32,000 bases of DNA from NCBI GenBank assembly GCA_030616775.1, contig JAUWWQ010000046.1, positions 1 through 32,000 on the forward strand. The letters are read 5' to 3'. Source of the stretch: Planctomycetota bacterium (GTDB lineage Bacteria > Planctomycetota > Phycisphaerae > UBA1845). The notes below the pieces were generated by a model. It saw only the letters and a program-made list of their open reading frames with translations. It searched no databases and was not told where the DNA came from. The position numbers and the translations under genes are program-made. Below, one piece after another: positions 2,505-30,918 of the stretch (its first letter is position 1; each line of letters begins with the position of its first letter).

Positions 2505-3368
2505 TTACTTATCCTGCCCTTGTTTGACTGGGTTGAGCAACCGCTTCTTCATGATTTGGGCAATCGGGACCCACTCGCCGGGGTTGTTGGCGGCGAACTC
2601 GTCCATGTCCCGGCCGTCAACGGCGATAAGCGCATCGGCAAGCTTGGAGCAGAATTTCCGGTCACACAGATGAAACGGATCTTTCTGCGCTAAACGGATA
2701 TGGTCTCGCATTCGCTGTAGCTCACGAGAACAACCCGGGTTTGTATCCACGAACGCCGCAATCTGTTCGAATACTGTGCTGTGCTCTTCGAAGAACGTAT
2801 GAACTGTACATTGGACGTTATCGCGTTTGCATTGGTGAATGACAACATCGAGGGAACCGTTCGGTCTCTCGCGCGGCGGCTCAGACGCTCGTATACATCC
2901 CGTTCCATTGAACTCGCCGGTGATCATGTCGCTCAGCGCCGCAAACGTGTCGAGTACAGCCCTCTTGCAGTGCGCACGCAACCGTACAATCATAGCACGT
3001 TCCGTTATACCCGCTTTCTCGTCATGCAAGAAGCGGCTCAGGGCTTGGAGACACGTGCGGGCAGGGCGTAGCTGTTTTGGATTAACCAGCCGCCTTTCTA
3101 TCTTGTCGTAGACATCGACAATACCCGCAGTGTCACGCTGCTGGCAAAGACTGTAGATGTATGCCAAAGGCTGAACCCAGGCATTTTTAATCTCAAGTCG
3201 TGAGTACGTGGACGCTCCTCTGAATCTGTACGTCGACAGAGCGTGTTTGACAGGAGCAGCATGACGCGGGCCCTTTTGCTGTTCGATCAAAAGGGTCGTG
3301 TCAACAAGAACCGTTCGAGAAGCAGGGCTTGGCTCAGCAGGTCTACTGATCCTACGTCCCCTGTTCAT
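2505..3368 (-). CDS. Hypothetical protein, split PIN-like nuclease candidate with a Cys/His-rich insertion (third gene of the 3-gene operon)
   Basis: 287-aa ORF whose ATG lies 5 nt after the stop of the upstream gene. The N-terminal strand TVLVDTTLLIE (D23) and STYSRLEI (E59) resemble PIN motifs 1-2. LADALIAVDGRD (D245/D251) resembles the C-terminal PIN acidic motifs. The roughly 185-aa insert carries H-Q-C-x6-C-x2-H and H-L-C-x4-C. Confidence 0.7.
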   Translation of the reverse strand: MNRGRRISRPAEPSPASRTVLVDTTLLIEQQKGPRHAAPVKHALSTYRFRGASTYSRLEIKNAWVQPLAYIYSLCQQRDTAGIVDVYDKIERRLVNPKQLRPARTCLQALSRFLHDEKAGITERAMIVRLRAHCKRAVLDTFAALSDMITGEFNGTGCIRASEPPRERPNGSLDVVIHQCKRDNVQCTVHTFFEEHSTVFEQIAAFVDTNPGCSRELQRMRDHIRLAQKDPFHLCDRKFCSKLADALIAVDGRDMDEFAANNPGEWVPIAQIMKKRLLNPVKQGQDK

Positions 3369-3373
3369 GGTTG

Positions 3374-3937
3374 CTACCGAGTCTCGTCCATGTCTTCGAT
3401 AAACGCAAGTGCTGTGAATCCTTGTCGGAGGAACTCGGCGCGCACGACCTCGGCATTCTCTCGCACCAACCGCGACTGCCCAAGATCGTTCAACGCCTCG
3501 CGAAACGCCGCAAGTTGCCCTTGTTTCACCGAACCGGTCTGACCAGCGATCCGCACACCATTCTCAAGTACTGCGAGGATCTCCTGGTGCGATTCGCTAC
3601 AGTCACATGCGCTTTCCCACATCCCCGCTACCACGCCTCTCAAGCCTTCAAGGCCCAGCTGCGCCTCGAAGTTGTCCACGGGGTCAATGCTGTCAACTAG
3701 CTCCCGCGCTTCCTTCAACAAATCCATGTCCAACATCTTGTCGGTACGACGCTGAGGTGCCCAACCGCCGTGGCGAACCGGCAAGTCTCTACTGCGCTGG
3801 GTGAGTCCGGAATCCCGCGTCTCCTGAGCTGGAGTCTCCCACTCCTGACTTACACCCGTGGTCCCTGGGCCGGAGGGCATGCTGGACGATTCTCGGCTCT
3901 TCACTACCTCAATCTCAGATGCGCTTGCTGTTTCCAA
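3374..3937 (-). CDS. Hypothetical protein (middle gene of the 3-gene operon); low-complexity N-terminus and helical C-terminal half
   Basis: 187-aa ORF with a TTG start at 3937. A GGAGG lies 7-8 nt upstream, embedded in the last codons (..cgg agg taa) of the upstream gene. Gaps to both neighbours are 5 nt. An internal ATG at 3736 is an alternative start. No recognisable catalytic motif. Confidence 0.65.
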   Translation of the reverse strand: METASASEIEVVKSRESSSMPSGPGTTGVSQEWETPAQETRDSGLTQRSRDLPVRHGGWAPQRRTDKMLDMDLLKEARELVDSIDPVDNFEAQLGLEGLRGVVAGMWESACDCSESHQEILAVLENGVRIAGQTGSVKQGQLAAFREALNDLGQSRLVRENAEVVRAEFLRQGFTALAFIEDMDETR

Positions 3938-3942
3938 GATGA

Positions 3943-4737
3943 TTACCTCCGAGTACTAAGAACTGCTGCCTGGAATCGACTTGCTTCCTGCTTCGCTTCC
4001 CGCAAGAAATCTTTGACCTTCGCTTCCTGCGGCGGCCAAACCCAATAGTAGTCAACATCGATCACGAACCCCGCTTCGGGCGATTGTTCTCGCTGCTTGG
4101 CACGCTTGAGCTGATCGAGAAGCGCTTCCCGTTGCCCCTTGGGAAGCAGGTGCGGAGGCGACTTCAGTCGTTCGTCCAGTTGGGCTGGCGCCCACATGCG
4201 ATGGAACGGTCCCGTTCGAACACTGGCGCCTTTCGAGCGATCCGGCAACTCAAAGATGTATGTTGAGCTATACTGGCGAGCCGTAAAACCCGACTCATCG
4301 GATCCCGGGACTCGCCAATCGCTTGAGGGTGCGTATTTGAGAGACAACGCTTCTGCCTCATCGATCGAATCGGTCCCGAGCACGTCGACGTGTCTACTCC
4401 CAAATCGACGCCAATCACGAAGGTCGAATCGCCCCGTGATTGTAGCTAACGTCGTCACCGCAATCGCGTCAAAGTCGCAAAAACGATCTCCGATAGGATT
4501 ACAATCGACGACCAGCCGTTCCGAGTGGAATGCAATCGCCAAGTTCAACTCTGGGCAAATGATCCTAGCTCCTGCAGGGGCAGTCTCTTGCGGCATCCAA
4601 GGATGATTCGTCTCTTCGGCAAGGATCTTCTCAAGAATCAGCATCACCTCACCGCAACGATCAAGATAACGATAACCACGTTCGTATCGGGCTTCGAAGA
4701 TCCGCTGCCGAGGAATAGGGTCTCGTGAAGAAGTCAT
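3943..4737 (-). CDS. Hypothetical protein, reminiscent of the uncharacterised TIGR04255 family (first gene of the 3-gene operon)
   Basis: 264-aa ORF with an ATG start. The opening ..RIFEARYERGYRYLDRCGEV.. and the later ..WRRFGSRHVDVLG.. resemble, from memory only, the two half-domains of TIGR04255-type proteins. No HMM check was possible here. Confidence 0.75.
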   Translation of the reverse strand: MTSSRDPIPRQRIFEARYERGYRYLDRCGEVMLILEKILAEETNHPWMPQETAPAGARIICPELNLAIAFHSERLVVDCNPIGDRFCDFDAIAVTTLATITGRFDLRDWRRFGSRHVDVLGTDSIDEAEALSLKYAPSSDWRVPGSDESGFTARQYSSTYIFELPDRSKGASVRTGPFHRMWAPAQLDERLKSPPHLLPKGQREALLDQLKRAKQREQSPEAGFVIDVDYYWVWPPQEAKVKDFLREAKQEASRFQAAVLSTRR

Positions 4738-5238
4738 TCTCGTTCAGCCAATCCGCAGATTCGTCGGCCTAAGGCGATCTGTCGCCCAGGCGATGATCGC
4801 TCCGATCTCTAAGTATACTCCCGTTGAACAGACAGCTCCAGCACGGAGCCTCTCTATCTTATAGGACGCCCGGGGCGCCTACAAGAACTTCAACAACGAC
4901 CGCTCGTTGATCAGCTGCGAGCGATCGCCGCTCCTGGGGCAAGAACGCACTCTTCTCGTTGCAATACACACTCGTCTCAAGCGACCGTTCGGCAAGGATC
5001 GTCACCCCTTGGGCCTGCACCGGAATAGATACTACATCCAGGATGCCGCCACCAGCGAGGAAACGCTGCTCCGTCGACTTCGCCGCGCGGCAGGGAGCAC
5101 CGCAAGCCGTGGGGCGCCTGTCAGGGCGTAACGTGGGTGTAACATGGGAGCTGCTGCAACAACGTCGCCGCTCTCGCCCCTCTCAGCGGTCAGAGTCGAA
5201 GGCGCATTGCCCTGCGCATGACAAGACAAGCAGCGCCG

Positions 5239-6051
5239 CTACTTGCCCTTGGTGCAGCCAGCGTGTTCCTTATTCTCATGACCGGCGTGGCCGGCATGGC
5301 CCTTGCTTTTTTGATGGCCGCACCCCTCATGCCCGTCATTCTTGTCGTGGGCGAATCCACCGTGTTCTTTGTCTCCGAGACCGGCGCAGCCGACATGCTC
5401 ATGACCAGCGCCGCCCCCGCACCCCAAAGCGCCATGATGTTCATCCACGAAGACGCGCATCTCATCTTCACTCAGCGTTCCGTCGCCATCGGTGTCGGCC
5501 TCAGGATTGTGCTCCAGCATTCTTGCACGGTGCTCCGCCATCTGTTGCGCCCTGAAGGTCTCGAACTCGGCCAGGGACAGCACGCCGTCCTGATCGGTGT
5601 CGGCCTCGAGATGATGCTCCATAACCATCGCACGGCGTTCCTCCATCCGTTGTGCTCGGAAGGCTTCAAACTCAGCCTCGGAGAACACGTCGTCGCTGTC
5701 GCTGTCGGTGTCGGCGGCGGGGTGATGCTCGAGCATCTTCGCACGCTGCTCGTCGGTCATCTTTCCGTATTCCATGCGTCCCATCATTCCGTGGTGCTTG
5801 CCTTCCATACATCCGGGTTTTCGGGCTTCGCCGTGACCGTGCTTCGCGGCGAAGAACGCCTTGATCTCCTCGCGGGTTAGAACACCGTCGCTATCGGCAT
5901 CGATACCCTGATCGCCGAAGCTCTCCAGCAGCTTGGCATGCCCAGATGCAGGGATTGGCTCAGTTGGCTCACCGGCGACGAAGACAACACCCACAGACAC
6001 CACGGAAATGGCGGCTGTCGCGACCACCAACTTGTACACTCGCATCCTCAT
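5239..6051 (-). CDS. Secreted or anchored EF-hand repeat protein with a His/Cys-rich C-terminal tail
   Basis: 270 aa. AAGGAGAA lies 6 nt upstream of the ATG. Hydrophobic N-terminus KLVVATAAISVVSVGVVFVAG. Four DxDxDG-type loops (DADSDGVLTREE, DTDSDSDDVFSEAEF, DTDQDGVLSLAEF, DTDGDGTLSEDEM). Three tandem MLEHHP-x-ADTD...FRAQ modules. Tail GHEGCGHQKSKGHAGHAGHENKEHAGC. Confidence 0.85.
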   Translation of the reverse strand: MRMRVYKLVVATAAISVVSVGVVFVAGEPTEPIPASGHAKLLESFGDQGIDADSDGVLTREEIKAFFAAKHGHGEARKPGCMEGKHHGMMGRMEYGKMTDEQRAKMLEHHPAADTDSDSDDVFSEAEFEAFRAQRMEERRAMVMEHHLEADTDQDGVLSLAEFETFRAQQMAEHRARMLEHNPEADTDGDGTLSEDEMRVFVDEHHGALGCGGGAGHEHVGCAGLGDKEHGGFAHDKNDGHEGCGHQKSKGHAGHAGHENKEHAGCTKGK

Positions 6052-6515: not shown

Positions 6516-7253
6516 TTACGCAGTAAGATCTACCTCAGCGCCCACCTCGAACACGTAGATCCACGACGTTCCGTTCCCCGCAGGATCGCTGCGCGCAACG
6601 GCATAGCCGTCCGCCTCGGCCTGGTCGGCCAATGCCTGGATGTTCTCGAGCGTGTCAAACTGCAGGGCCCCGGTCGGGCACGTGTCGACGCAAGCCGGCG
6701 CCCGGCCGTCTCTCGTTCGTCCGTAGCAAAACACGCACTTGAGAACCTTGTTCTCGTCGGTGCTAAACTTCGGTACACCGAACGGACAATTGTTGACGCA
6801 CATCTGGCAGCGTATGCAGTTATCGTGATCCAGCACGACCGGACCATCGGCGAGTTTCTGCATGGCTGGCGTGTCCGTCCCGTTTTGCGGGCAAACGTTC
6901 ACGCAAGTCGGATCCTCGCAGTGCATGCACTGCCGTTTGGTGAATACGACGTTCGCGTCGCCTGCGTCATAACTGCCCGACTCATGTTCCCCGACATAGC
7001 ACCACGTTTGCGGTGTGAAGTCGGTTTTGAACGTTGTGGGGTCCGTCTCGTTGTCCCACCAGCTCTTGCAAGCGATGTGGCAGGACTTGCAGTTGACACA
7101 GCGTCGCGTGTCGACAAGGACGCCGTACACCGTGGCGGTTGTTTCCTGGGCGTTGGCTGCGGTCTTGGACAGTGCAGCCGGGGCGGCCACAGCGGCGCCC
7201 GCGCCAATCCCTACCGTCTTGATGAAGGTTCTTCTTTGCATATCTGTATTCAT
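6516..7253 (-). CDS. 4Fe-4S ferredoxin-type electron-transfer subunit of a DMSO-reductase-family enzyme (ArrB/PsrB-like), with a Tat signal
   Basis: Start chosen at ATG 7253 (MNTDMQRRTFIK); an AGGAG 8 nt upstream overlaps the stop of the catalytic-subunit gene. Twin-arginine QRRTFIK. Four Cys clusters: CVNCKSCHIAC, CMHCEDPTCVNVCP, CIRCQMCVNNCP, and CVFC..ACVDTCP. Confidence 0.9.
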   Translation of the reverse strand: MNTDMQRRTFIKTVGIGAGAAVAAPAALSKTAANAQETTATVYGVLVDTRRCVNCKSCHIACKSWWDNETDPTTFKTDFTPQTWCYVGEHESGSYDAGDANVVFTKRQCMHCEDPTCVNVCPQNGTDTPAMQKLADGPVVLDHDNCIRCQMCVNNCPFGVPKFSTDENKVLKCVFCYGRTRDGRAPACVDTCPTGALQFDTLENIQALADQAEADGYAVARSDPAGNGTSWIYVFEVGAEVDLTA

Positions 7254-7264
7254 GGAGCCAACTC

Positions 7265-9625
7265 CTAGGCTTTGTAGACTCTTACGCACACATCCGACAT
7301 CCGGGCGCCCGCAGACCAGTCGCCATTGTCGATACAGCTCTGTTCAGGCCGGTCCACGATGAGGACTCCGTCACCTTGGTCCGCGAAGGTGTTTGTGAGC
7401 CCGTCCATTGTGTGGCCGTAGTTGTGATTGGTAAGGACACAATCGGGCCTGATCCGTTCGGTGAGGACCGCCTGCACCTTCATCTTGCCGTTGGCGGATT
7501 CGATCCACACGGTGTCGCCGTCCGCGATGCCCAGATCGGCGGCGGTGTCCGGATGAATCTTGGCTACCGGCCCCGGGAAGGCGTCCAGAGAATACCGGTT
7601 GTCGGACGTAAGCGGTGCGCTGTGTTTCAGGCCAGCCCACCGCATTAGCAGCAGGTAAAGCGGGTATTCAGCATCTAAAGCTGTGGCCCGCGCGATCCAC
7701 GCGGGAAGCGGCCCGTAGCCCGCTGCCTCCATCTTCTCGCTGTAGATCTCGATCTTGCCGGAGGGCGTGCTGTAGTCGGACTTGGCGGTGTACGGGGCGT
7801 CTTCGGCCCACACGCCGTTTTCCACCGCGAGAACGTCATCCAGCGTCCAACCCTCCACGATGTCGCTCGCCATGGAGTTCTTCTCATCGGAGCTGGTGAC
7901 CCAATCACCACCGGCGAGCTTGAAGTAGTTCGTTCCACGCAGCTCATCGAGCTTCTTACCGAGAGTCATGGCGATGCCGGTCCAACCCTTGGTGTCACCC
8001 AACGGCTGGACGGCACGGTTCCCGGCCATAACAAGCTTCTGCCCTGGTGTGCAGAACTTGCGGTACGAGATGTAGTTGTTCTCGAGGAACATCGGCTGCG
8101 GCAGGACGAGATCGGCAAACCACATCGCCTCCTTGGGCATCGTGTCGGCGAAGACAACATAGTCGAGGGTGGACAGAGCCTCGGCAATCCTCGTTGGATT
8201 CGGGAATGAGAGGAGTCCGTACCTGTAGAGGATCGCCATTTTCAGCCGGTAGGGATCCTGGTCCAGAATCCTCTGCGCTAAGTTCGCGAAAATGCCCCTA
8301 TCCGTTGTGAGGTCCCTGACCAACGGGAAGTTGTGCTTGCCATCGATCGCCCCCTTCTCATCGATCAGCGTCTTGAGATCCTTGGGTGGATTCTCCTCAA
8401 AAGTCAGATGCGCTTTGGGTTTCCAGCCGAACGCCAGGCATGCGTCACCACCATCCCGATCGATGGCACCGACGAATGCGTTGAGGATCAGAGACGCGTG
8501 GGCGGTTTGGAAGCTATTAGCATAGTTCGGTCCGCCAGCGCCATCGCGTTTGTGGATCGGAATGATCGCGGGCTGGTTGGCCGGGTCCGTAAACTCCTCC
8601 GCCAGTCGTATAATCGTTGCGGCGGGCACCCCACATTGGCTTTCAGCCCACTCCGGTGTGTAGGCGGCAAAGTTGGCGCGGATGTCCGCCTCATGGTCGG
8701 CGAAGTTCGTTCTGGCCACGGCCGTCGCGTCATAGAGATCGTTCGTCAGTATGTGGTTTATCATGCCCAGCATCACGGCCAGGTCGGTGCCCGGCATGAT
8801 GGGGATCCACTCGTTAGCTTTCGCGCCGACGACCCCTTGCCACGGGTTCAGACACACGACTCTTGCGCCATTCATCCGCGCGTTGCTGAACTGGCCAGTG
8901 GGCTGGTTCTTGGACCGCTCGGGTTGATCCCAGCCAAAGCTGAGGATGTACTTGGCCCCGGCTAGGTTGGTCCACGGAAGGCTTCCGGTTAGCGCCTTTC
9001 TTGCTACGAATGACGTCGAGAAACATGTATCGTAGTGTGTTATGAGGTTGGGCGACCCGATGGCAGTCAAGAGTTTGGCACCCCAGTCGTACGCACCGTG
9101 CGTGATCAATGCAAACGCTTCGCCGTTGGCGAAGTCAGCAGCGCCTGGCGCCGACTCGGTCGCCGCGGTGATTTGCTCGATCATGGCGTCATACGCCTCG
9201 TCCCAAGTGATCTCCTCCCACTGCGGGTCCACACCGATGCCCTTTTCGGGATTGGTGCGGCGGAGCGGAACCATTAGTCGGTCCGGATTGTACAGAAACC
9301 CGAGAGCCGCTTTGCCTTTGGGGCAAAGATGGCCGTTGTTGAACGGATCGGCTGGGTTCCCCTCGACGTAGACGGCCTCGCCGTCCTTGACGTAGACCTG
9401 CATGCCGCAACGGATCATACAAATCCCGCAAGCGTTGTAGACCATGTCGTCATAAGCCAGCTTGGCGTTCAACGGCGGCTCGTAGCCGTCGGGTCCGGGC
9501 CCAGGTTGCGGACCGGGTCCAGGCCCGGGGTCTGGGGGTTGGAATCCGCAGCCCCCGACGGCGCCAAGCGTGAACGCGGCCGCCCCTGCGGTTTTAAGAA
9601 AATGTCTCCGGGTTTCGTCATCCAT
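7265..9625 (-). CDS. Molybdopterin (bis-MGD) oxidoreductase catalytic subunit, ArrA/PsrA-like, Tat-exported with a lipobox-like Cys
   Basis: Start chosen at ATG 9625, with GGAG 7 nt upstream; the ORF track start is 9667. Consensus Tat motif TRRHFLK. VGGC is followed by a PPDPGPGPGPQPGPGPDG linker. The N-terminal FeS motif is C-x2-C-x3-C-x27-C (CGICMIRC...HLCPKG). About 786 aa, typical of the DMSO reductase family. Confidence 0.9.
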   Translation of the reverse strand: MDDETRRHFLKTAGAAAFTLGAVGGCGFQPPDPGPGPGPQPGPGPDGYEPPLNAKLAYDDMVYNACGICMIRCGMQVYVKDGEAVYVEGNPADPFNNGHLCPKGKAALGFLYNPDRLMVPLRRTNPEKGIGVDPQWEEITWDEAYDAMIEQITAATESAPGAADFANGEAFALITHGAYDWGAKLLTAIGSPNLITHYDTCFSTSFVARKALTGSLPWTNLAGAKYILSFGWDQPERSKNQPTGQFSNARMNGARVVCLNPWQGVVGAKANEWIPIMPGTDLAVMLGMINHILTNDLYDATAVARTNFADHEADIRANFAAYTPEWAESQCGVPAATIIRLAEEFTDPANQPAIIPIHKRDGAGGPNYANSFQTAHASLILNAFVGAIDRDGGDACLAFGWKPKAHLTFEENPPKDLKTLIDEKGAIDGKHNFPLVRDLTTDRGIFANLAQRILDQDPYRLKMAILYRYGLLSFPNPTRIAEALSTLDYVVFADTMPKEAMWFADLVLPQPMFLENNYISYRKFCTPGQKLVMAGNRAVQPLGDTKGWTGIAMTLGKKLDELRGTNYFKLAGGDWVTSSDEKNSMASDIVEGWTLDDVLAVENGVWAEDAPYTAKSDYSTPSGKIEIYSEKMEAAGYGPLPAWIARATALDAEYPLYLLLMRWAGLKHSAPLTSDNRYSLDAFPGPVAKIHPDTAADLGIADGDTVWIESANGKMKVQAVLTERIRPDCVLTNHNYGHTMDGLTNTFADQGDGVLIVDRPEQSCIDNGDWSAGARMSDVCVRVYKA

Positions 9626-9757
9626 ATTCTTTCTCCGTGTCTCCTTGTGACAATAGGGCCCACGCATGCCAAGCTACGGCGTATCCCATCCTCGCCGAGG
9701 GTGCTCAGATTTCGCCGTGCCTACCGGTTCTTGTCCGGCGATGTTGGCCGCGCGCTT

Positions 9758-9773
9758 ATGGCAATAGTGCCAT
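9758..9773. promoter_or_regulatory. Palindromic operator-like site A (ATGGCAATAGTGCCAT) upstream of the oxidoreductase operon
   Basis: 16-bp ATGG-N8-CCAT palindrome located 133 nt upstream of the catalytic-subunit ATG and just downstream of a sigma70-like promoter on the minus strand. It matches the reverse complement of site B at 14/16 positions. Confidence 0.45.
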
Positions 9774-9785
9774 TAGCGAATTAGA

Positions 9786-9814
9786 CCATTAGACCAAAAA
9801 GCGATTGATGTCAA
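9786..9814 (-). promoter_or_regulatory. Sigma70-like promoter candidate for the oxidoreductase operon
   Basis: The minus strand reads TTGACA (9814-9809), N17, TAATGG (9791-9786). An alternative is TTGACA-N15-TCTAAT, using the GGTCTAAT GGTCTAAT tandem. Confidence 0.3.
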
Positions 9815-10256
9815 GATGACGGGTAGGAATAGCGTTATGCTTTTGAAAACATATTGCCTTGGCTCCGTGACACCGGTTTGTACCCGCTCGACCGGTGACC
9901 AAGTCGGCAAGTCGTAGCGTACCCGCCGCGGCGACGAAGGACCGGGCAAAGCGTCGAGCCAGGCGCGCCCGGGGAAGGTCACGCTCTTGTAACACCGCGG
10001 TCCACGGCACCTCGTCCATCTGGCCGGCTGTGGCGAGGCGTGAAAGGAAGTGTCTCCCCAGCTCACCGAGTCCCGGGGAGCAGGAAGAAGACGTATAACT
10101 TGTTTATTCGCAATGGCTTACGCGAATCAGCAATCTCGGTCGAGGTCACAATCTTGTGGCTCCACCGCCGTCGGCGCATGGCCATATCGCCCCTGGCGGC
10201 GGGCGTGGAGGGGAAAGAGTTCGGGACAGACCGAAGAAATGAAGTGAGCTGCGAGC

Positions 10257-10284
10257 TTGACGGCGTCTGAACTCATGGTAATAT
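10257..10284 (+). promoter_or_regulatory. Sigma70-like promoter candidate for arsR (short-leader or leaderless transcript)
   Basis: TTGACG (10257-10262), N16, TAATAT (10279-10284). The -10 element lies inside palindrome B, and the arsR ATG is at 10297. Confidence 0.45.
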
Positions 10285-10290
10285 TGCCAT
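10275..10290. promoter_or_regulatory. Palindromic operator-like site B (ATGGTAATATTGCCAT) overlapping the arsR -10 region
   Basis: 14/16 self-complementary. It ends 6 nt before the arsR start codon. Confidence 0.5.
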
Positions 10291-10296
10291 AGACGT

Positions 10297-10620
10297 ATGA
10301 AACGCAAGCCGATCCAACACTACGAGGCGCGAGCGGCGGTTGCCAAGGCCCTTGCCCACCCCAGCCGGCTATTGATGCTCGACGCGCTGGCAAAAAAGGA
10401 GATGTGCGTTTGCGACCTGACTGAGCTAGTCGGGGCCGATCAGTCGACCGTGTCGAAGCATCTCGCTGTGCTTAAACACGCAGGGATTGTCGATGTTCGA
10501 AGAGACGGAGTCATGACGTATTACAGGATGAAGATCCATTGCCTTGAAGGCTTTTGGAAGTGTGTTGAGTCCGTGCTCAGGCAGAACCTGAAGGATCAGA
10601 GCGCGGCGCTGGGCGTGTAA
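10297..10620 (+). CDS. arsR: ArsR/SmtB-family metalloregulatory transcriptional repressor
   Basis: 107 aa. Contains the HTH plus metal-site motif ..LAKKEMCVCDLTELVGADQSTVSKHLAVLKHAGIV.., including the canonical CVC As(III)-site triad region. Confidence 0.9.
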   Translation: MKRKPIQHYEARAAVAKALAHPSRLLMLDALAKKEMCVCDLTELVGADQSTVSKHLAVLKHAGIVDVRRDGVMTYYRMKIHCLEGFWKCVESVLRQNLKDQSAALGV

Positions 10621-10644
10621 GGATTCTCTCTTTTTCGTCAATGT

Positions 10645-10660
10645 ATGGTACAATGCCCAT
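10645..10660. promoter_or_regulatory. Palindromic operator-like site C (ATGGTACAATGCCCAT) upstream of the permease gene
   Basis: Same ATGGTA....CCAT frame as site B (12/16 identical). It contains a -10-like TACAAT and ends 6 nt before the ATG at 10667. Confidence 0.4.
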
Positions 10661-10666
10661 AAAGCA

Positions 10667-11995
10667 ATGAATGGCGGGGTCTCAGTCTCGATGAAACAGT
10701 GGAAGATATTTGCCGCGTTCGTAAGCATTTTCCTGATCGCTTACTACCTCCCGCTCGCCAACCTCAAGGTGACCGCGGCAATCCTCGAAGCGTTTAAGAT
10801 GCTCCAATGGTACGCCAGGAACCATACCTTGGCGTGTGTCGTTCCGGCGCTGTTCATTGCCGGAGGCATCATCACTTTCCTGTCAAAGGAGGCCGTCCTC
10901 CGGCACCTTGGCCCCAAGGCCAACAAGGTCGAGGCGTACTCGGTCGCCTCGGTATCCGGGACCGTTCTGGCGGTTTGCTCGTGCAGCGTGCTGCCGATGT
11001 TTGCGGGCATCTACCGGATTGGTGCGGGACTCGGTCCCGCGTCCGCCTTCCTCTACTCCGGGCCGGCGCTCAACATACTGGCGATCTTCCTCACTGCGCG
11101 CGTGCTGGGCTTTCAGATCGGCGTGGCCCGGGCGGTAGGTGCGATCGTCTTCGGCATCATCATTGGGCTCATCATGGCCGTCGTGTTCCGGAAGGATGAG
11201 GAGGTTCGCATGGAAGCAGCGGCCGCCACGCCCGAGCCGCCCCCCGCCCGGCGGTCCCTCTGGCAGACCGTCTTGTACTTCGCGTGCATGATGGCCTTTC
11301 TGATCTTCAGTGACTGGTACAACCCGGGCAACGTGGTCGTACACAGGACCGACGGCTCGGAGATTCCGGCTGTGCTGTTGCAGGAGACGAAGGACGAAGT
11401 GCTTGTGCAGGTGGATCGTCCCATCGCCGGTATGAAAGTCGGCGAGAAGATCGCGCTTGCCAAGATCGACATTGTCCGCATGGAGGAAGCGCAAAGCTGG
11501 GTAATGACGATCTATCACGCCAAGTGGTACCTGGCCGGTGCGATGGGCCTGGCGGTGCTCTTGATGGTGTGGCGGTGGTTCGATCGTGAGGAAGTTGCCG
11601 AATGGATGCACAACACCTGGGACTTCGCCAAGCTGCTGGTGCCCCTGCTGTTCGGCGGTGTGTTCATCGTGGGATTTCTTGGCGCCCTTCTGCCGGATAA
11701 GCAAGTGGCCGCACTTGTCGGTGACAACAGTCTCCAGTCAAACGTGATCGCCTCGGTTATCGGATGCCTGTTTTACTTTGCCACATTGACGGAGATTCCG
11801 ATTCTGCAAGCACTTTTTGAGCACGGGATGCATCAGGGACCGGCCTTGGCGCTGCTGCTGGCCGGTCCGGCCTTGTCATTACCCAGCCTGCTGGTAATTC
11901 GTTCGGTCATAGGTAACAAGAAGACAGCCGTGTTTACCGGTTTGGTCGTGGTGATGGCCACGATTGTCGGGATGATCTACGGTACAATTGCTTAG
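10667..11995 (+). CDS. ArsP-type (COG0701/DUF318) membrane permease with a central soluble insertion
   Basis: 442 aa and multi-TM. Motif GTVLAVCSCSVLPMF is typical of this permease family, and the C-terminal half has LAGPALSLPSLLVIRSV. The classic gene order ArsR, permease, mini-thioredoxin is present. Alternative start at 10691. Confidence 0.8.
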   Translation: MNGGVSVSMKQWKIFAAFVSIFLIAYYLPLANLKVTAAILEAFKMLQWYARNHTLACVVPALFIAGGIITFLSKEAVLRHLGPKANKVEAYSVASVSGTVLAVCSCSVLPMFAGIYRIGAGLGPASAFLYSGPALNILAIFLTARVLGFQIGVARAVGAIVFGIIIGLIMAVVFRKDEEVRMEAAAATPEPPPARRSLWQTVLYFACMMAFLIFSDWYNPGNVVVHRTDGSEIPAVLLQETKDEVLVQVDRPIAGMKVGEKIALAKIDIVRMEEAQSWVMTIYHAKWYLAGAMGLAVLLMVWRWFDREEVAEWMHNTWDFAKLLVPLLFGGVFIVGFLGALLPDKQVAALVGDNSLQSNVIASVIGCLFYFATLTEIPILQALFEHGMHQGPALALLLAGPALSLPSLLVIRSVIGNKKTAVFTGLVVVMATIVGMIYGTIA

Positions 11996-12006
11996 GGAGG
12001 TGCACG

Positions 12007-12267
12007 ATGAAGATCGAAGTTCTGGGACCAGGGTGCCCGAAGTGCCGGGCACTGGCGGCCGGCGTCAAGGCCGCAGCCGACCGGCTCGGTCTGGAGTACG
12101 AACTGAACAAGGTCACGAACATCATGGAGATCACCAAACACGGTGTCATGGTCACTCCGGCCCTGGTGATCGACGGCGAGGTCAAGCTATCCGGCAAGGT
12201 AGCCAGCGAGGCGGAGCTGACAACGATACTGACCGCCGCCCAGTCAAAGGAAGGCGGTAGCCAATAG
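12007..12267 (+). CDS. Small thioredoxin-fold protein (redox-active disulfide protein 2 type)
   Basis: 86 aa, MKIEVLGPGCPKCRAL..., with a CPKC active site and VMVTPALVIDGEV. GGGAGG lies 6 nt upstream of the ATG. Confidence 0.9.
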   Translation: MKIEVLGPGCPKCRALAAGVKAAADRLGLEYELNKVTNIMEITKHGVMVTPALVIDGEVKLSGKVASEAELTTILTAAQSKEGGSQ

Positions 12268-12482
12268 TCGTCGTCTTGACCCCGGAGGTGTCGCCGCCTT
12301 GGGCTGTTGAACTGCGTCTGGCAGGCGCCCGAATTAGCAGAGATTCCGGACTTCGTGCCCTTGCACGTGACAGGCCCGGGCACGCCAAAGGGAGAGACGA
12401 CTATGGTGACTGAGGTCTTGACACGGCCGACAGAGGGAGCCGGGGCGCTCCCGAATGTAAACGGGAAAGGAGACAAGAACCC

Positions 12483-13016
12483 ATGAAAGCCAAAACGATC
12501 GTATCAACGGTTCTGCTGCTCTTCGTTGCAGCGAGCGTGGCATACCTGGTGGTGAACGAGTCCCGGTCCCAGCCGGAGGCTGACCAGGGCGTTCAGAATG
12601 CCGGGGCAACGCAAACGACATCGCAGCAAGCTGTAGCGGAGTCGGCCGTCATTGCTGATGAGGCCAACGATACGGGACACAAACTGATAGCCTACTACTT
12701 CCACCGAACCCAGCGCTGCCGAACCTGCCTGGCGATGGAGGCATACGCTGAGGCAGGCCTGAGAGATGGGCTCCCCGATGCGTTCGAGTCGGGCGAGCTG
12801 GAATGGCGCGCAGTTAACGTCGAGGAGCCGGAGAATGAGCATTTCGTGGAGGAGTACGGGCTTACTGCGAGTGCGCTCGTGATGGTGTTGCTCGAGAACG
12901 GCGAGCAGAAGCAATCGAAGAACCTGGAGCGCGTCTGGGAACTCGCCCGCGACGAGTGGGGATTCAAGGATTATGTCCGCGACGAAGCGTTGACTTACTT
13001 GGAGGACGGTTCTTGA
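12483..13016 (+). CDS. Membrane-anchored thioredoxin-like CxxC protein (ArsF-family-like by recollection)
   Basis: 177 aa. N-terminal TM segment IVSTVLLLFVAASVAYLVV. The motif YYFHRTQRCRTCLAME (CxxC) sits in a thioredoxin-like context. It is followed 8 nt later by a DsbD-like permease gene. Confidence 0.65.
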   Translation: MKAKTIVSTVLLLFVAASVAYLVVNESRSQPEADQGVQNAGATQTTSQQAVAESAVIADEANDTGHKLIAYYFHRTQRCRTCLAMEAYAEAGLRDGLPDAFESGELEWRAVNVEEPENEHFVEEYGLTASALVMVLLENGEQKQSKNLERVWELARDEWGFKDYVRDEALTYLEDGS

Positions 13017-13024
13017 CAGGCGAG

Positions 13025-13705
13025 ATGGTTCTCGGGATGTCGTCCGCGGCCTGGCTCGGAATTCTGACTTCCATCAGCCCGTGTCCGCTGGCCACAAACA
13101 TCGCCGCGATCTCGTTTATCGGCAGGCGGGTCGGGAATCCGAAGGCCGTAGTCGCCACCGGGCTTCTGTATACCGCCGGGAGATCGCTGTCCTATGTTGT
13201 CCTGGCGATGATCCTTGTCACCAGCCTGCTGTCCGCGCCAACCGTATCCCATGTCCTGCAGAAGTACATGAACAAGCTTCTCGGGCCGATCCTCATCCTT
13301 GTGGGTATGCTTCTGCTGGAACTCATTCAGTTCAGAGTCCCGGGGATCGGTGTTAGCGAGAAGATGAGCAAACGGGTCGAAGGGTGGGGCATATGGGGAG
13401 GTCTGGTTCTCGGCGTGATATTTGCTCTGTCCTTCTGTCCCGCCTCGGCGGGTCTGTACTTCGGCAGCCTGATCCCGTTATCCGTCAAGTGCGAATCCAG
13501 CGTGCTGCTGCCTTTGCTGTTTGGGATCGGTACTGCACTCCCAGTGTTCGTTTTTGCAATTCTCATTGCGGTCGGAACTCAAGCGGTTGGCCGGGCATTT
13601 GAGAGGATAACTCAGTTCGAGTGGTGGGCCCGTCGGATCACCGGGACGATTTTCATCGTAATCGGCGTCTACTTCTGTCTGATGTTCATCTTCCGTGTGT
13701 TGTAA
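13025..13705 (+). CDS. DsbD/CcdA-fold transmembrane protein (ArsG-family-like efflux permease or thiol-disulfide transporter)
   Basis: Start chosen at ATG 13025; the ORF track start at 12956 overlaps the previous gene. Six predicted TM segments. Paired motifs SISPCPLATN and LSFCPASAG are typical of the DsbD/CcdA superfamily. Confidence 0.75.
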   Translation: MVLGMSSAAWLGILTSISPCPLATNIAAISFIGRRVGNPKAVVATGLLYTAGRSLSYVVLAMILVTSLLSAPTVSHVLQKYMNKLLGPILILVGMLLLELIQFRVPGIGVSEKMSKRVEGWGIWGGLVLGVIFALSFCPASAGLYFGSLIPLSVKCESSVLLPLLFGIGTALPVFVFAILIAVGTQAVGRAFERITQFEWWARRITGTIFIVIGVYFCLMFIFRVL

Positions 13706-13749
13706 TGATGGCGACACGCGCCCCCTGGCTGATCTCGGTTCCCTAACGG

Positions 13750-14049
13750 TTACTCGCAACACGTCGCGTCTGCGGAACAGTCACAGGTCGGCTCGCTGCC
13801 GCGCAACATCCCATTGAGCACTGCGGTCGCGCAGCCTACGCCGGACCGTACGGAAATGGCCTCGGTTATGCAGTTTAGAGCACAAGCCCCACATTCCATG
13901 CACGCGTCTCGGTCGGCAATCCGGGCCTTTTGGCTCTCAATGACCAGTACACCATGCGGACATACTTCCGTGCACACTCCGCAGCCGGTGCATTTTTCAC
14001 TATCCAAGATCAGTGTCACGACATTGGGGAGATAACGTAACCGTGTCAT
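13750..14049 (-). CDS. hgcB: Mercury methylation ferredoxin HgcB
   Basis: 99 aa, opening MTRLRYLPNVVTL. Two CX2CX2CX3C motifs (CTGCGVCTEVCP, CMECGACALNC). The conserved GVGCA cysteine and a C-terminal vicinal CC (..ATCCE) are present. GGGAGG lies 5 nt upstream of the ATG, and the gene is immediately downstream of hgcA. Confidence 0.9.
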   Translation of the reverse strand: MTRLRYLPNVVTLILDSEKCTGCGVCTEVCPHGVLVIESQKARIADRDACMECGACALNCITEAISVRSGVGCATAVLNGMLRGSEPTCDCSADATCCE

Positions 14050-14160
14050 TTGTGCCTCCCGGGTTGCAGGCCCTCATGCGCCGGGCGCCGTCGATCGTCT
14101 CTCTCACGTCGCTGCCGTGGGCGTTGCCTGCTCCGCATAACCGCTGTCCGTCGTCGCTGC

Positions 14161-27945: not shown

Positions 27946-28698
27946 CTACGAGCTGACCTCGCAGCGTTCCAAGACAGCCCGCATGGTCTCCCCGATCGGC
28001 TCGCGGATTATCAGATCAGCCAGGTAGTCAAGTGGGGTTTCGGTATTGTTGATGATGGCCAGCGTGGCCCCGTGTTCCTTGCCCAGCCGCGGCAGAGACG
28101 CAGCCGGCTCGACAACCAGTGAGGATCCGATCGCCAGGTATACGTCGGCCTCCATCGACAGCCGGGTCGCCTCCTCCATCTCGCGCTCGGGCATGGGCTG
28201 GCCAAAAGAGACGGTCTTCGATTTGAGCGGTGCTCCGCACTCGTCACAGTCTGGTGCTTCGTCGCCGGCCTCGACCCGGACCAGCACCTCGGCAGGCGGC
28301 CATTCCTTACCACACCCGATGCACTCGACCATGCGGGCGGTGCCGTGAAGCTCGATAACTCGCCGGCTGCCGGCCTGCTGGTGCAGACCGTCGATGTTCT
28401 GCGTGATGACGGCGACGATCTTGCCGAGTTCTTCCAACCGGGCGATGGCCCGATGACCGTCGTTGGGCTCGGCCTGGCCGAACTCGCGGTGGAGCTGGAC
28501 ACGCATTTTCCAATAGCGCACCCGGGCCTCACGTGAGGCCAGAAACTCGTGATACATCACCGGCTTGTGCTTCGACCACACCCCGCCCGGACTGCGAAAA
28601 TCCGGTATCCCACTCTCCGTACTGATCCCCGCACCGGTAAAGGCAATACCCACCTGTGCGTTCTTGACAAGTCGGGCTAGGGTCTGAACCGTGGACAT
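27946..28698 (-). CDS. cobB: NAD-dependent protein deacylase, Sir2 family
   Basis: GAGISTESGIPDFRSPGGVW, QNIDGLH, and the Zn ribbon CIGCG...CDECG. Start chosen at ATG 28698 (250 aa); the ORF track start is 28758. Confidence 0.9.
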   Translation of the reverse strand: MSTVQTLARLVKNAQVGIAFTGAGISTESGIPDFRSPGGVWSKHKPVMYHEFLASREARVRYWKMRVQLHREFGQAEPNDGHRAIARLEELGKIVAVITQNIDGLHQQAGSRRVIELHGTARMVECIGCGKEWPPAEVLVRVEAGDEAPDCDECGAPLKSKTVSFGQPMPEREMEEATRLSMEADVYLAIGSSLVVEPAASLPRLGKEHGATLAIINNTETPLDYLADLIIREPIGETMRAVLERCEVSS

Positions 28699-28944
28699 AC
28701 GACATGCATGATAGCAGGTCCCTGCCGTAACCGCAGCGCCCATCCATAACCGGATCAAAATGGTTGGGTGCGGTCCTGAAGTCTCCTGCTCGCGTGTGAG
28801 GCCCCAAAGCGCCCGATGTGGCGGAGCCTAACGTATCAGTGATAGGTCTTTTGCGAACTGTCGCGCTTCTGGAAAACGAGCCTTGAGCTGCGGCTTCGTC
28901 TCAGCGAACTCCTCTGCGAGCGTCTTGCCCGTCGCTCCACGTGA

Positions 28945-30918
28945 ATGCAGAAACACCAGGGTGGTTCGGCACTCACTGTGGCGGGAGGCGGGGTCGGTCT
29001 GCTAAGATGGGCGGCGATGGTCGAGCACGCAAGAGCCGTTGGACAGTCGGAGAGTAGTGGCAGTCGTGGAGCTGGAGTGCCACGCACTGGCATTGGGCGC
29101 GGCGACCGACGGAGGGCGTGGGCGGTGCTGGCCGTAGTGGCCGTGGCAGTGACTGTGCGACTGAGCTTCGAGATCGAAACGCATGATGTGCCAACAGTGC
29201 GTCACTTGGTCGGTGACGCGGCCGGATACTACCAGTGGGCGACGAAGATAGCGAGCGGCGAGTGGCTGGGGGATGAGTCGTTTTATCAGGCGCCATTGTA
29301 TCCGTATGTGCTGGGATTGTGGCTAAGGCATGCTGGGTGGGAGATAGGCGGGATTCGGCTATTGCAAGCGCTGTGGGGAGCGTTGGGAGTATGGTGTCTG
29401 TGTTGTGGCACGGCGCGGATATTGGGGTGGAGGACGGGGATTGTTGCGGGGGCGATGTTGGCAGTGTACGCCCCGGCAGTATTTTTTGACGGCATCGTGC
29501 AGAAGACCTCTTTGGGGTGTTTGCTGGTGTGTGTGCTGCTGGTGGTGATGGGATGGGCAGAGCACGCGAAAAGAGGCTACGTGGCGGCGGTGGTGATGGG
29601 CGCTGTGGCCGGATTGCTGGTGCTGACGCGCGAGAACGCGATCGTGTGGCTTCCGCTGGTCGGGATCTGGCTGTTAATGAGGGGAGGAAAGGTTACTGGC
29701 ACCGTGTCCAGTCGGAGGTTTTCGGGCAAGGGAGTGCTTCGGACTCTCCACGGCCGGCACGGGGACCGGCGGCTACACCGGGCATCGGACTCGTCAACGG
29801 GAAGCGGCACTGGGCGGAAGAGACTGGTGCTAATTGGAGGGTACACTCTTGGCTTAGCGGTGGTTCTTACACCTGTGGGCATACGAAACAAGGTGGTCGG
29901 TGGTGAGTGGTCGTTGTCCACGTTTCAGGCGGGGCCTAACTTCTACATTGGCAACCATCGCGGTGCAGACGGGCGGTATCAGCCGCTGGTTCGGGGGCAT
30001 GAAACGCCGGCGTTTGAGCGACAGGACGCCACGGTCTTGGCAGAGCGTGACTTGGGACGGACGCTTTCGCCACGGGAGGTTTCGCGCTACTGGATGGGGC
30101 GGGCGATGGGGGATATCCGGGATAATCCGCTACGGTGGCTGGGGTTGACGATTCGGAAGATGTTGATGGTCTGGAATCGTTATGAGGTTTCGGATGCGGA
30201 GAGCCTGGAGGTCTACAGAGACGACTCCGTGACACTGCGTGTGCTGGGCTCGGTATGGCACTTCGGGATTTTGTGTCCCCTGGCGGCGGTCGGGGTGGTG
30301 GCCACACGAAGTCAATGGCGGCGTCTGTGGATTTATTACGCGCTGATAGTGTCGATGGCATTGGCAGTTGCGCTGTTTTACGTGATGGCCCGCTACCGGT
30401 TTCCACTGGTGCCGCTGTTGATTCCCTTTGCAGCAGCCGGGTGCGTGGAGCTTTGGGATCGAATGCGTATACGGGCGTTTCAGCGGCTACTGGGGCCAGT
30501 CACTGTCGGACTGGTGGTAGCCGCTGTTGTGAACTGGCCGGTGCACGATGAGAAACGGCTCAATGCCATGGCCTGGATGAACGTGGGTGTAGCCTTGGCT
30601 CAGCAGGGTGAGGTGGAGGATGCGACGCATTATTTCCGCAAGGCGGTCAACGATCATCCTGAATCCGCGGAAGCCAACAACAATCTTGCTCAGGCACTGG
30701 CCCTTGGTGGAGACTACGCCGGGGCGATTCCACACTATCAGGCTGCACTCGCGGCAGAGCCGACGTTGATGGGCGTGGACTACAACCTGGCCGTGGCTTT
30801 GGAGCGGGTCGGTCGGTTGGACGAGGCACTGGTGCACTATCAGCGAGCTGTCGAGCTTGATCCGTCAGACAATGATGCCCGGGCGGGAATTGGGCGCCTG
30901 CGAGCGGATCGGCGCTAG
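28945..30918 (+). CDS. ArnT/PMT-like GT-C glycosyltransferase fused to C-terminal TPR repeats
   Basis: 657 aa. The N-terminal polytopic domain has DAAGYYQWATKIASGEW..FYQAPLYPY. The C-terminus has about 4 TPR units (NVGVALAQQGEVEDATHYFRKAVNDHP...). The exact start is uncertain (several in-frame M/V). Confidence 0.8.
   Translation: MQKHQGGSALTVAGGGVGLLRWAAMVEHARAVGQSESSGSRGAGVPRTGIGRGDRRRAWAVLAVVAVAVTVRLSFEIETHDVPTVRHLVGDAAGYYQWATKIASGEWLGDESFYQAPLYPYVLGLWLRHAGWEIGGIRLLQALWGALGVWCLCCGTARILGWRTGIVAGAMLAVYAPAVFFDGIVQKTSLGCLLVCVLLVVMGWAEHAKRGYVAAVVMGAVAGLLVLTRENAIVWLPLVGIWLLMRGGKVTGTVSSRRFSGKGVLRTLHGRHGDRRLHRASDSSTGSGTGRKRLVLIGGYTLGLAVVLTPVGIRNKVVGGEWSLSTFQAGPNFYIGNHRGADGRYQPLVRGHETPAFERQDATVLAERDLGRTLSPREVSRYWMGRAMGDIRDNPLRWLGLTIRKMLMVWNRYEVSDAESLEVYRDDSVTLRVLGSVWHFGILCPLAAVGVVATRSQWRRLWIYYALIVSMALAVALFYVMARYRFPLVPLLIPFAAAGCVELWDRMRIRAFQRLLGPVTVGLVVAAVVNWPVHDEKRLNAMAWMNVGVALAQQGEVEDATHYFRKAVNDHPESAEANNNLAQALALGGDYAGAIPHYQAALAAEPTLMGVDYNLAVALERVGRLDEALVHYQRAVELDPSDNDARAGIGRLRADRR

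Follow-up and report, generated by a model that had tools for sequence, protein, structure and literature searches.

A compact block of three minus-strand genes, here named A, B and C and together called the triad, was studied in a 32,000-nucleotide stretch of a Planctomycetota genome (Phycisphaerae, UBA1845; GenBank assembly GCA_030616775.1, contig JAUWWQ010000046.1, positions 1 to 32,000 of the forward strand), the whole of which we refer to as the window. By comparing the sequence of the block with that of homologous loci we show that A, B and C are inherited as one unit, in a fixed order, and that they are translationally coupled. The cassette matches no entry in Pfam, NCBIfam, PADLOC or the PDB, and constitutes an undescribed family that is mainly confined to the PVC superphylum (Planctomycetota, Verrucomicrobiota and relatives). 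New are the protein families of A and B, the unusual PIN variant represented by C and a dichotomy in which A is accompanied by one of two nucleases; small mobile conflict modules with a nuclease effector are as such known. With respect to function we consider there to be about an even chance, judging by analogy, that the block constitutes a horizontally mobile and self-contained conflict cassette of three genes, i.e. an anti-phage/abortive-infection or toxin-antitoxin-like system.

PVC bacteria are abundant in soils, sediments and waters. To our knowledge their defence and toxin repertoires have barely been charted, nearly all validated systems that we know of stemming from Proteobacteria and Firmicutes. 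A first-pass annotation, made from the letters of the window, had singled out the block as a candidate undescribed defence or toxin-type system; its observations were confirmed in part and its interpretation is partly supported, the core intuition being sound. As it had stated, the three proteins are uncharacterised and correspond to no named defence system, that is they have no match in PADLOC, Pfam or NCBIfam. The full-text literature yielded no prior description of the triad; later or other literature may hold one.

Inheritance and coupling of the three genes

In the list of open reading frames (ORFs) of the window, gene A (3943..4737, 264 aa) and gene C (2505..3368, 287 aa) start with ATG and the intervening gene B (3374..3937, 187 aa) with TTG, all on the minus strand, and on reading the sequence both gaps turn out to be exactly 5 nt (3938-3942 and 3369-3373), so that the lengths and spacings given in the first-pass annotation stand to the nucleotide. 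The 3' end of A reads ...ACT CGG AGG TAA, with a GGAGG inside its last two sense codons, and the A/B junction (3938..3951, minus strand) consists of this GGAGG, the TAA stop, the 5-nt spacer and the TTG of B, the distance from the GGAGG to the TTG being 8 nt. By this arrangement the junction is a predicted translational-coupling signal, as had been proposed at first sight. At the B/C junction (3369..3373, minus strand) the 5-nt spacer leads from the TAG stop of B to the ATG of C; in the gene calls of homologous loci B and C overlap by 14-32 nt.

The block is bounded by 96 bp of non-coding DNA downstream (2409-2504) and 501 bp upstream (4738..5238), in line with the earlier estimates of about 100 and 500 bp. 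The upstream region is the presumed promoter site of the minus-strand block, and in it we read by hand, some 120 nt upstream of the ATG of A on the minus strand, a promoter-like element that is composed of TTGTAG (4884-4879), 15 nt and TATAAG (4863-4858). Its spacer holds the palindrome CGCCC-C-GGGCG, which is possibly an operator. A scan of the 501 bp with the sigma-70 consensus found no canonical site and passed over this element because of its 15-nt spacing; the same region has no Rfam match and no nucleotide similarity to other triad loci, and no excess of promoters or terminators marks the boundaries of the block.

Homologous loci were fetched via A from species-representative genomes (36 loci), a viral collection (one locus) and metagenomes (80 loci), complemented by exact-protein look-ups, and were annotated with profiles of A, B and C over six-frame ORFs. 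Word-indexed searches recovered 116 clusters of full-length homologues for A, 4 such clusters for B and 16 close homologues for C, and an exhaustive profile search raised the number for C to 379 clusters at 50% identity, nearly all of 260-300 aa. Since each of the three has full-length homologues, A, B and C are not chance ORFs. The order A, B, C and the common strand were kept in every locus with enough sequence among about 110 loci, in hosts that belong to the Planctomycetota, Omnitrophota, Verrucomicrobiota and Victivallales, which bears out the co-localisation, in the same order and between unrelated flanks, that the first-pass annotation had named as the check to make in unrelated genomes. 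The pairwise divergences of A and C correlate strongly (r=0.92 over 26 loci; 0 of 2000 permutations in a Mantel test). In addition, the frame of B is open at the stop of A in 87 of 95 loci, and the median distance from that stop to the first start in the frame of B is -4, i.e. a 4-nt start/stop overlap. For the weakly conserved 5' portion of B, the joint probability of staying open by chance is about 1e-37. The open frame and the 4-nt overlap together imply that translational coupling holds family-wide and that the N-terminal region of B is translated.

The latter point matters for the annotation of these genes. In public records the gene calls of the window's proteins (P0001, P0017 and P0133) are shortened at the N-terminus, namely to 220 instead of 287 aa for C, 233 instead of 264 aa for A and 117 instead of 187 aa for B, and these calls would remove D23 and E59 of C, the first strand of A with its most conserved motif (GYRYLDRCG, see below) and the disordered region of B. 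The conservation of the corresponding segments in homologues supports the long forms as the probable gene products, and the triad thereby exposes a systematic N-terminal mis-annotation of these genes.

The three proteins and a sister branch with a second nuclease

Protein A carries a near-invariant motif, GYRYLDRCG (residues 21-29), and its invariant residues in the family alignment (A3) are G21, R23, D26, R27, G29 and Q202. No match was found for A in Pfam, NCBIfam or PADLOC at E<=1, a PDB sequence-profile search returned no significant relative, and an NCBIfam scan of 108 relatives gave nothing consistent. The resemblance to the sporadically distributed family TIGR04255 that had been suggested for A did not hold up: neither A (E<=1) nor the 108 family members (E<=10) match it, and we found no papers on TIGR04255 in the full-text literature. 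The AlphaFold (AF2) model of A is of high confidence (mean local confidence, pLDDT, 94.2; predicted template-modelling score, pTM, 0.90) and is made up of two beta-alpha-beta4-alpha repeats; as modelled, A is a duplicated fold of the type of the TATA-binding protein (TBP), i.e. a pseudo-dimer. The invariant residues and near-invariant Arg, Asp and Glu residues alternate along the strands (E15/R17, R111/R115, D227/D229), and we infer that they line one face of the sheet, as would be expected of a surface that binds a ligand or nucleic acid. In Foldseek searches of the PDB the best matches are S-adenosylmethionine decarboxylase (AdoMetDC)/prozyme (E 8e-5) and RepDE (E 4e-4), along with many TBPs; in BFVD the viral protein A0A515MGR4 comes first (E 3e-7, template-modelling (TM) score 0.53/0.67), followed by TBP-like proteins, and a weak match to an inovirus Rep protein is present as well. 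A pyruvoyl enzyme of the AdoMetDC type was considered for A and ruled out, because its invariant set does not contain a Ser.

For protein C, the 16 close homologues have in common an N-terminal VLVDTSLLIEQQK and, towards the C-terminus, LADALIAVDG...FAANNDREW, as well as four invariant cysteines (C158, C180, C187 and C240) and an invariant E265. Among 109 diverse members D245 and C240 are still invariant and E59, C158, C187 and N262 are conserved in at least 90%, while D23 reaches this level (>=90%) in the 16-member set and is the majority residue in the larger one. The window's copy keeps all four acidic residues, D23/E59/D245/E265, together with N261/N262, and has P263, not a catalytic position, where most homologues show D. 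Its acidic residues thus follow the order D, E, D, D/E of PIN domains, and PIN (PF01850) is the commonest Pfam match among the relatives of C (14 of 109, best E 1.3e-5). VapC of Shigella/E. coli, a reference confirmed by 100% identity to the annotated toxin, aligns co-linearly with C in two hhalign segments, one pairing D23 with D7 and E59 with E42 (P=0.005), the other pairing D245 with D98 and N261-N262..E265 with N116-N117..E119 (P=0.007-0.05); the fetched loci contained no VapC-like ORF with which to enrich the alignment of the PIN template. The AlphaFold model (pLDDT 89, pTM 0.83) has a PIN-compatible order of strands and helices, interrupted by a mostly helical insertion of about 155 aa (roughly residues 80-235) that bears the Cys ligands. 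C has no NCBIfam or PADLOC match at E<=1 and a PDB profile search gave no significant relative. We conclude that C is a predicted PIN-like, VapC-type metal-dependent nuclease with a large 4-Cys insertion, which by score lies outside the curated Pfam family. The PIN-like motifs and the Cys-bearing insertion noted in the first-pass annotation were therefore recovered, and the two residues it had picked out, D23 and D245, are among those predicted to be catalytic.

Protein B had been described there as small and partly disordered, a view that both the composition and the conservation of residues 1-70 bear out. S, P, G, Q, E, T, R and K make up 69% of this region, hydrophobic residues are few, and its conservation is 0.37 as compared to 0.63 for residues 71-180; it is likely to be disordered and of low complexity. 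The C-terminal part of about 115 residues (71-187) is a conserved domain (alignment A2), which is probably helical and in which W107, S109, A110, S114, H117, E125, R146, D151, R166, F169 and G173 are invariant. As a whole B evolves fast, and it has no relative in Pfam, NCBIfam or PADLOC (E<=1) or in PDB profile searches. The B proteins that accompany a PIN-type C fall into a Phycisphaerae, a Gemmatales and an Omnitrophota type, of which the last connects the first two, with hhalign E values of 9.7e-5 and 7.6e-4; compared directly, the B groups G1 and G2 show no significant homology, their link running via the Omnitrophota type only.

The family also contains a sister branch, found in Verrucomicrobiota, Victivallales and many metagenome contigs from soil and peat, in which A again has the GYRYLDRCG motif, matches the A profile with E 1e-17 to 1e-23 and is followed by different partners. 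The middle protein, B' (group G3), measures 160-185 aa, has an 'NQPFEMDE' motif and a low-complexity N-terminus, is unrelated to the B groups (hhalign E 0.5) and gave no significant relative in a PDB profile search. The third protein, of about 345 aa, contains THPHxDH and matches Lactamase_B weakly, and its family matches the beta-lactamase-like domain of ComEC (9ic4, E 8.9e-7; 30bt, E 7e-5), i.e. a metallo-beta-lactamase (MBL) fold. Profile scans detected no protease domain in B' or A. Type I, consisting of A, a helical B and a PIN-like C, accounts for about 40 of the 80 metagenome loci and for most genome loci; type II, consisting of A, B' and the MBL protein, accounts for about 30 loci (L035, L036, L041 and L051-L082). 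Neither another third gene nor a mixed combination occurs among all classified loci, and from this strict dichotomy it follows that A is the constant element and that the middle protein co-varies with the nuclease.

As a separate observation, the MBL proteins of type II (alignment A7; e.g. L035:11171-12214 and L051:3087-4133) have four conserved cysteines near the C-terminus, C283, C314, C336 and C339. This set parallels the 4-Cys site of the PIN-type C, and the two nucleases may have in common a feature that depends on a metal or Fe-S, or the same mode of docking.

Distribution, mobility and surroundings

The triad is patchily distributed: a pattern-based scan of 185,579 species representatives yielded 36 loci, spread over several PVC classes and phyla. 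An A protein from Sedimentisphaerales and one from Pirellulales are nearest neighbours, with 62% identity as compared to about 45% within class, a comparison to be read with the caveat that metagenome-assembled genomes (MAGs) can be mis-binned. A 5-Mb genome of the Phycisphaerales has one copy within a Mu-like prophage, and on an IMG/VR viral contig the gene order is integrase, replication initiator, triad, portal and head protease. The composition of the block deviates as well. Its GC content, in 500-nt windows, is 0.53-0.59, as compared to 0.594 for the window mean and 0.58-0.63 in the flanks; the difference is about 5 points, and comparable dips occur at other places in the window. The GC content at third codon positions (GC3) is clearly lower, with 0.55 for A, 0.65 for B and 0.58 for C, as against 0.67-0.79 in 16 of the 17 other window genes measured (the exception being YHS, 0.63). 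The low GC reported in the first-pass annotation therefore stands in direction, at a much reduced strength, and its hand-counted contrast of 42-57% with 58-65% was not reproduced. Taken together, GC3, the patchy distribution, the cross-class nearest neighbours and the prophage carriage support horizontal mobility, and with it the horizontal acquisition that had been suggested for the window's copy.

The gene neighbourhoods of the triad vary strongly. The genes that flank it in the window recur in no other triad locus, and no Pfam family occurs more than twice among 106 immediate neighbours in 30 loci. Some neighbours are of a conflict-related or mobile type. In the Omnitrophota locus L022 a type IV restriction endonuclease of the GmrSD type (DUF262) with HNH is encoded at 8712-9920 (+), 66 nt upstream of A and on the same strand; in L047 a system of a C5-methylase, HhH-GPD and EcoRII-C lies about 2 kb upstream of A; and other loci adjoin a NERD-kinase with TniB/rve (Tn7-like) genes, DDE transposase or insertion sequence (IS) genes, a type II restriction-modification pair, or matches to PDC-S01, mad6 and MkoA. 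One close homologue adjoins RtcB-archease. Decayed copies were found as well: in a MAG of Kuenenia (L040:4347-5185) the A gene is broken up over three frames, four metagenome contigs (L083, L084, L088 and L089) hold N-terminal fragments of A only, the MBL gene is frameshifted in L073 and L081, and an insertion of about 1.1 kb separates B' from the MBL gene in L077:7310-8413. Part of these come from long-read assemblies, and some of the decay is possibly sequencing error.

In the window, the block is followed by a convergent plus-strand gene (201-2408) for a DEAD/Hel308-like helicase with DUF3516 in the profile scans, the helicase that had been noted on this side. It matches HamB-like helicase models in PADLOC generically and is unrelated to the triad; as a component of the system it was rejected in view of its convergent orientation and its absence from all other triad loci. 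Directly upstream of the triad lies a minus-strand gene for an EF-hand repeat protein of 270 aa (5239-6051), with internal tandem repeats of 105-111 nt at 5473-5754 and a His/Cys/Gly-rich C-terminus; this protein may bind a metal or Ca in the periplasm and be tied to the adjacent metal cluster. That cluster, of an arsenic/metal type (6516-17021), encodes a 4Fe-4S dicluster protein (6516-7289), a molybdopterin oxidoreductase (7265-9667), an ArsP permease (10667-11995) and an SBF/Acr3-like transporter (15945-17021), and further includes DsbD_2 and a CdhD-like protein; the 'metal-resistance island' of the first-pass annotation was thus roughly right, as a Mo-oxidoreductase/4Fe-4S pair with ArsP, DsbD_2 and an SBF/Acr3-like gene. 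The IS element suspected nearby is absent, neither a transposase nor an IS element being found in the whole window, and the block is bounded by no tRNA gene and by no meaningful direct or inverted flanking repeats. Further away, 23 kb from the triad and unlinked to it, a SIR2-family protein of 270 aa (27946-28758, minus strand; Pfam E 2e-45) is probably a CobB-like deacetylase. In the region 28750-30500, within a TPR/PMT_2 gene (28945-30918), the GC skew is strongly positive, with values of 0.18-0.41 in 500-nt windows, far above that of the rest of the window.

Predicted function and relation to known systems

Among published systems, RnlA-RnlB comes nearest to the triad in its logic. RnlA consists of two TBP-like domains and a HEPN RNase, and its TBP1 domain is necessary for binding of the substrate and for activity; RnlB, the small antitoxin, blocks the RnlA nuclease, and RnlAB defends against phage T4 (PMC8266594, PMC3710099). 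In RNase HIII it is likewise a TBP-like domain that binds the substrate (PMC3710099, PMC8266594). MBL hydrolases of the ComEC-like type act as latent anti-phage DNases that are released by a co-evolving partner (PMC12799240).

By analogy with such systems, C would be the effector of the triad, a Mg2+/Mn2+-dependent nuclease whose substrate would more likely be RNA, because of its VapC-like features, with DNA as a possibility; for the ComEC-like branch we would favour DNA. B would act as the nuclease-specific regulator, made in a fixed ratio by translational coupling, and probably keeps C inactive through its folded C-terminal domain, while its disordered N-terminus might, in the manner of type II antitoxins and RnlB, provide lability or a tether. 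With its exposed Arg/Asp-rich sheet face A would bind nucleic acid or another ligand, and it could either recruit the substrate for C, as TBP-like domains do in RnlA and in RNase HIII, or sense a cue of infection or stress and free C from B. Upon activation nucleic acid would be degraded and the cell or the invader arrested. In type II the MBL protein would be the effector nuclease and B' its dedicated gate or inhibitor. A more specific form of this proposal is that the family represents a new, PVC-specific class of immune systems, in which a stand-alone TBP-like A senses a nucleic-acid structure or a protein of the phage and controls a latent PIN or ComEC-like MBL nuclease, each gated by its own adaptor or inhibitor. 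We put this forward tentatively, as possible rather than probable. If true, both the sensor family and the gating logic would be of a kind not yet described, unlike the activation of MBL effectors by a protease.

A number of results weigh against the assignment to conflict. The label 'defence' derives from context and analogy, and no member of the family is present in PADLOC or in a curated family. The PF01850 profile does not reach its threshold in the window's C, which has no Pfam match at E<=1, and Foldseek against the PDB returned only weak PIN/HARP matches for C, none of them significant. For A the TM score to solved structures is only about 0.3, RnlA is outside its top 50 Foldseek matches, and hhalign comparisons of A with RnlA (E 0.45, alignment A3) and of B with RnlB (E 0.49, alignment A2) reveal no homology; profile scans of B show no recognisable DNA-binding or inhibitor domain. 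The nucleases come in just two types, a dichotomy instead of the wide shuffling of effectors that is typical of many defence families. A tblastn search with A gave zero matches in 50,697 phage records of INPHARED and 72,556 plasmid records of PLSDB, collections that are poor in PVC hosts. Most neighbours of the triad are ordinary metabolic or housekeeping genes, and defence or mobile genes occur in a minority of loci. As many loci have metabolic and housekeeping neighbours only, the enrichment beside defence genes is at most suggestive.

The predominance of such neighbourhoods would fit a tripartite toxin-antitoxin (TA) module for addiction or stress, without dedicated phage sensing, in which C is the PIN toxin, B the labile antitoxin and A an accessory chaperone, transcriptional regulator or substrate-specificity subunit, as in TAC or omega-epsilon-zeta. 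The gene order, in which a small, partly disordered protein directly precedes a VapC-like PIN nuclease, is that of classic type II modules, and the tight coupling and the sporadic, mobile distribution with decayed copies agree with it too. We nevertheless regard this explanation as unlikely: A is conserved at least as well as C and architecturally obligatory in the two branches alike, an unusual property for an accessory regulator, B has no DNA-binding domain that can be recognised, and C is double the size of VapC. The explanation moreover overlaps with a conflict cassette, many TA modules being anti-phage themselves, such as RnlAB (PMC8266594).

The remaining two explanations assign the triad to the cell or to its mobile elements, and we consider both very unlikely. 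A complex for nucleic-acid processing or repair in PVC bacteria, acting in RNA maturation or turnover, DNA repair or DNA uptake with A as the substrate-binding subunit, C as the nuclease and B as the scaffold, might be read from the role of TBP-like domains as substrate-binding modules of the housekeeping RNase HIII (PMC3710099), from the action of ComEC-like MBL domains in DNA uptake, from the RtcB-archease beside one close homologue and from the Hel308-like helicase that adjoins the triad in the window. Such a complex is hard to reconcile with the occurrence of the triad at no more than 36 loci among 185,579 species representatives in the pattern-based scan, with flanks that vary in every locus and a helicase that is never conserved, and with the atypical GC3, the prophage carriage, the pseudogenised copies and the fast evolution of B. 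Alternatively, the triad could serve a mobile element in replication, recombination or anti-defence, with A as an initiator of a Rep-like or DNA-binding kind and C as a resolvase or a nuclease for processing; two copies are indeed (pro)phage-borne and situated between replication and packaging modules, some loci have transposase and Tn7-like neighbours, and the weak structural matches of A include the rolling-circle RepDE (E 4e-4) and the inovirus Rep. Most loci, that in the window included, are however devoid of phage or element genes, of an integrase, of terminal repeats and of a tRNA target, the phage and plasmid records gave no matches, neither an HUH nor another Rep motif is present in the invariant set of A, and the position within the phages is typical for accessory cargo.

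Whatever its function, the cassette defines protein families that are all unannotated, with at least 116 clusters of A, two kinds of B and, at 50% identity, 379 clusters of C. Should it prove to be an immune or TA system, A would be a new TBP-like nucleic-acid-binding sensor or specificity module and C a new insertion-bearing 4-Cys PIN nuclease, and a single conserved partner would control two unrelated nucleases via matched adaptors, which would complement the protease-gated effectors of the ComEC-like MBL type.

None of A, B and C has a match at E<=1 among the 5027 models of PADLOC-DB v2.0. The N-terminal domain of RNase HIII resembles A in its fold class, beta-alpha-beta4-alpha, and in being the nucleic-acid-binding module of a nuclease; there the repeat occurs once and is joined to a housekeeping RNase H, whereas A is a stand-alone double repeat, and sequence similarity between the two was neither looked for nor seen. 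With VapBC the triad has in common the VapC-type acidic tetrad of C, a C-terminal motif (ANN..EW) like the TNN..EF of VapC, and a small, partly disordered protein that is encoded directly upstream and translationally coupled. Unlike VapC, C has 287 aa with the insertion of about 155 aa and four Cys, and scores below the Pfam PIN threshold; unlike VapB, B is without an AbrB, RHH, HTH or PHD DNA-binding domain; and the two-gene operon with a DNA-binding antitoxin that characterises VapBC is replaced by three obligatory genes, with A as conserved as C.

Going by the predictions for A, B and C, the anti-T4 toxin-antitoxin RnlAB/LsoAB of E. coli resembles the triad in its two TBP-like domains, its ribonuclease-type module, its small inhibitory partner (RnlB, with the corresponding role of B being predicted) and its tightly packed operon, and RnlAB sits in prophage CP4-57, as some triad copies also reside in prophages. 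In the triad, however, a polypeptide of its own forms the TBP-like part, the order is A-B-C instead of toxin followed by antitoxin, the nuclease is PIN (or MBL), and the association of A with the nuclease is genetic only. Membership of RnlAB/LsoAB was rejected, there being no sequence homology and the nuclease being PIN-like instead of HEPN, so that by analogy the triad is at most an architectural counterpart of RnlA-RnlB and not a homologue or member. The sister branch, finally, shares with the trypsin-MBL, HamM and Canu modules a ComEC-like MBL protein as the third gene. It differs from them in that B' has no protease signature and A is no known sensor (STAND, Hachiman or Argonaute); type II thus has the MBL of a nuclease-protease pair and no protease, and the window's copy has a PIN protein and no MBL gene. 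The release of the published MBL nucleases by a co-evolving partner agrees with the way in which, throughout the triad family, the middle gene strictly co-varies with the nuclease.

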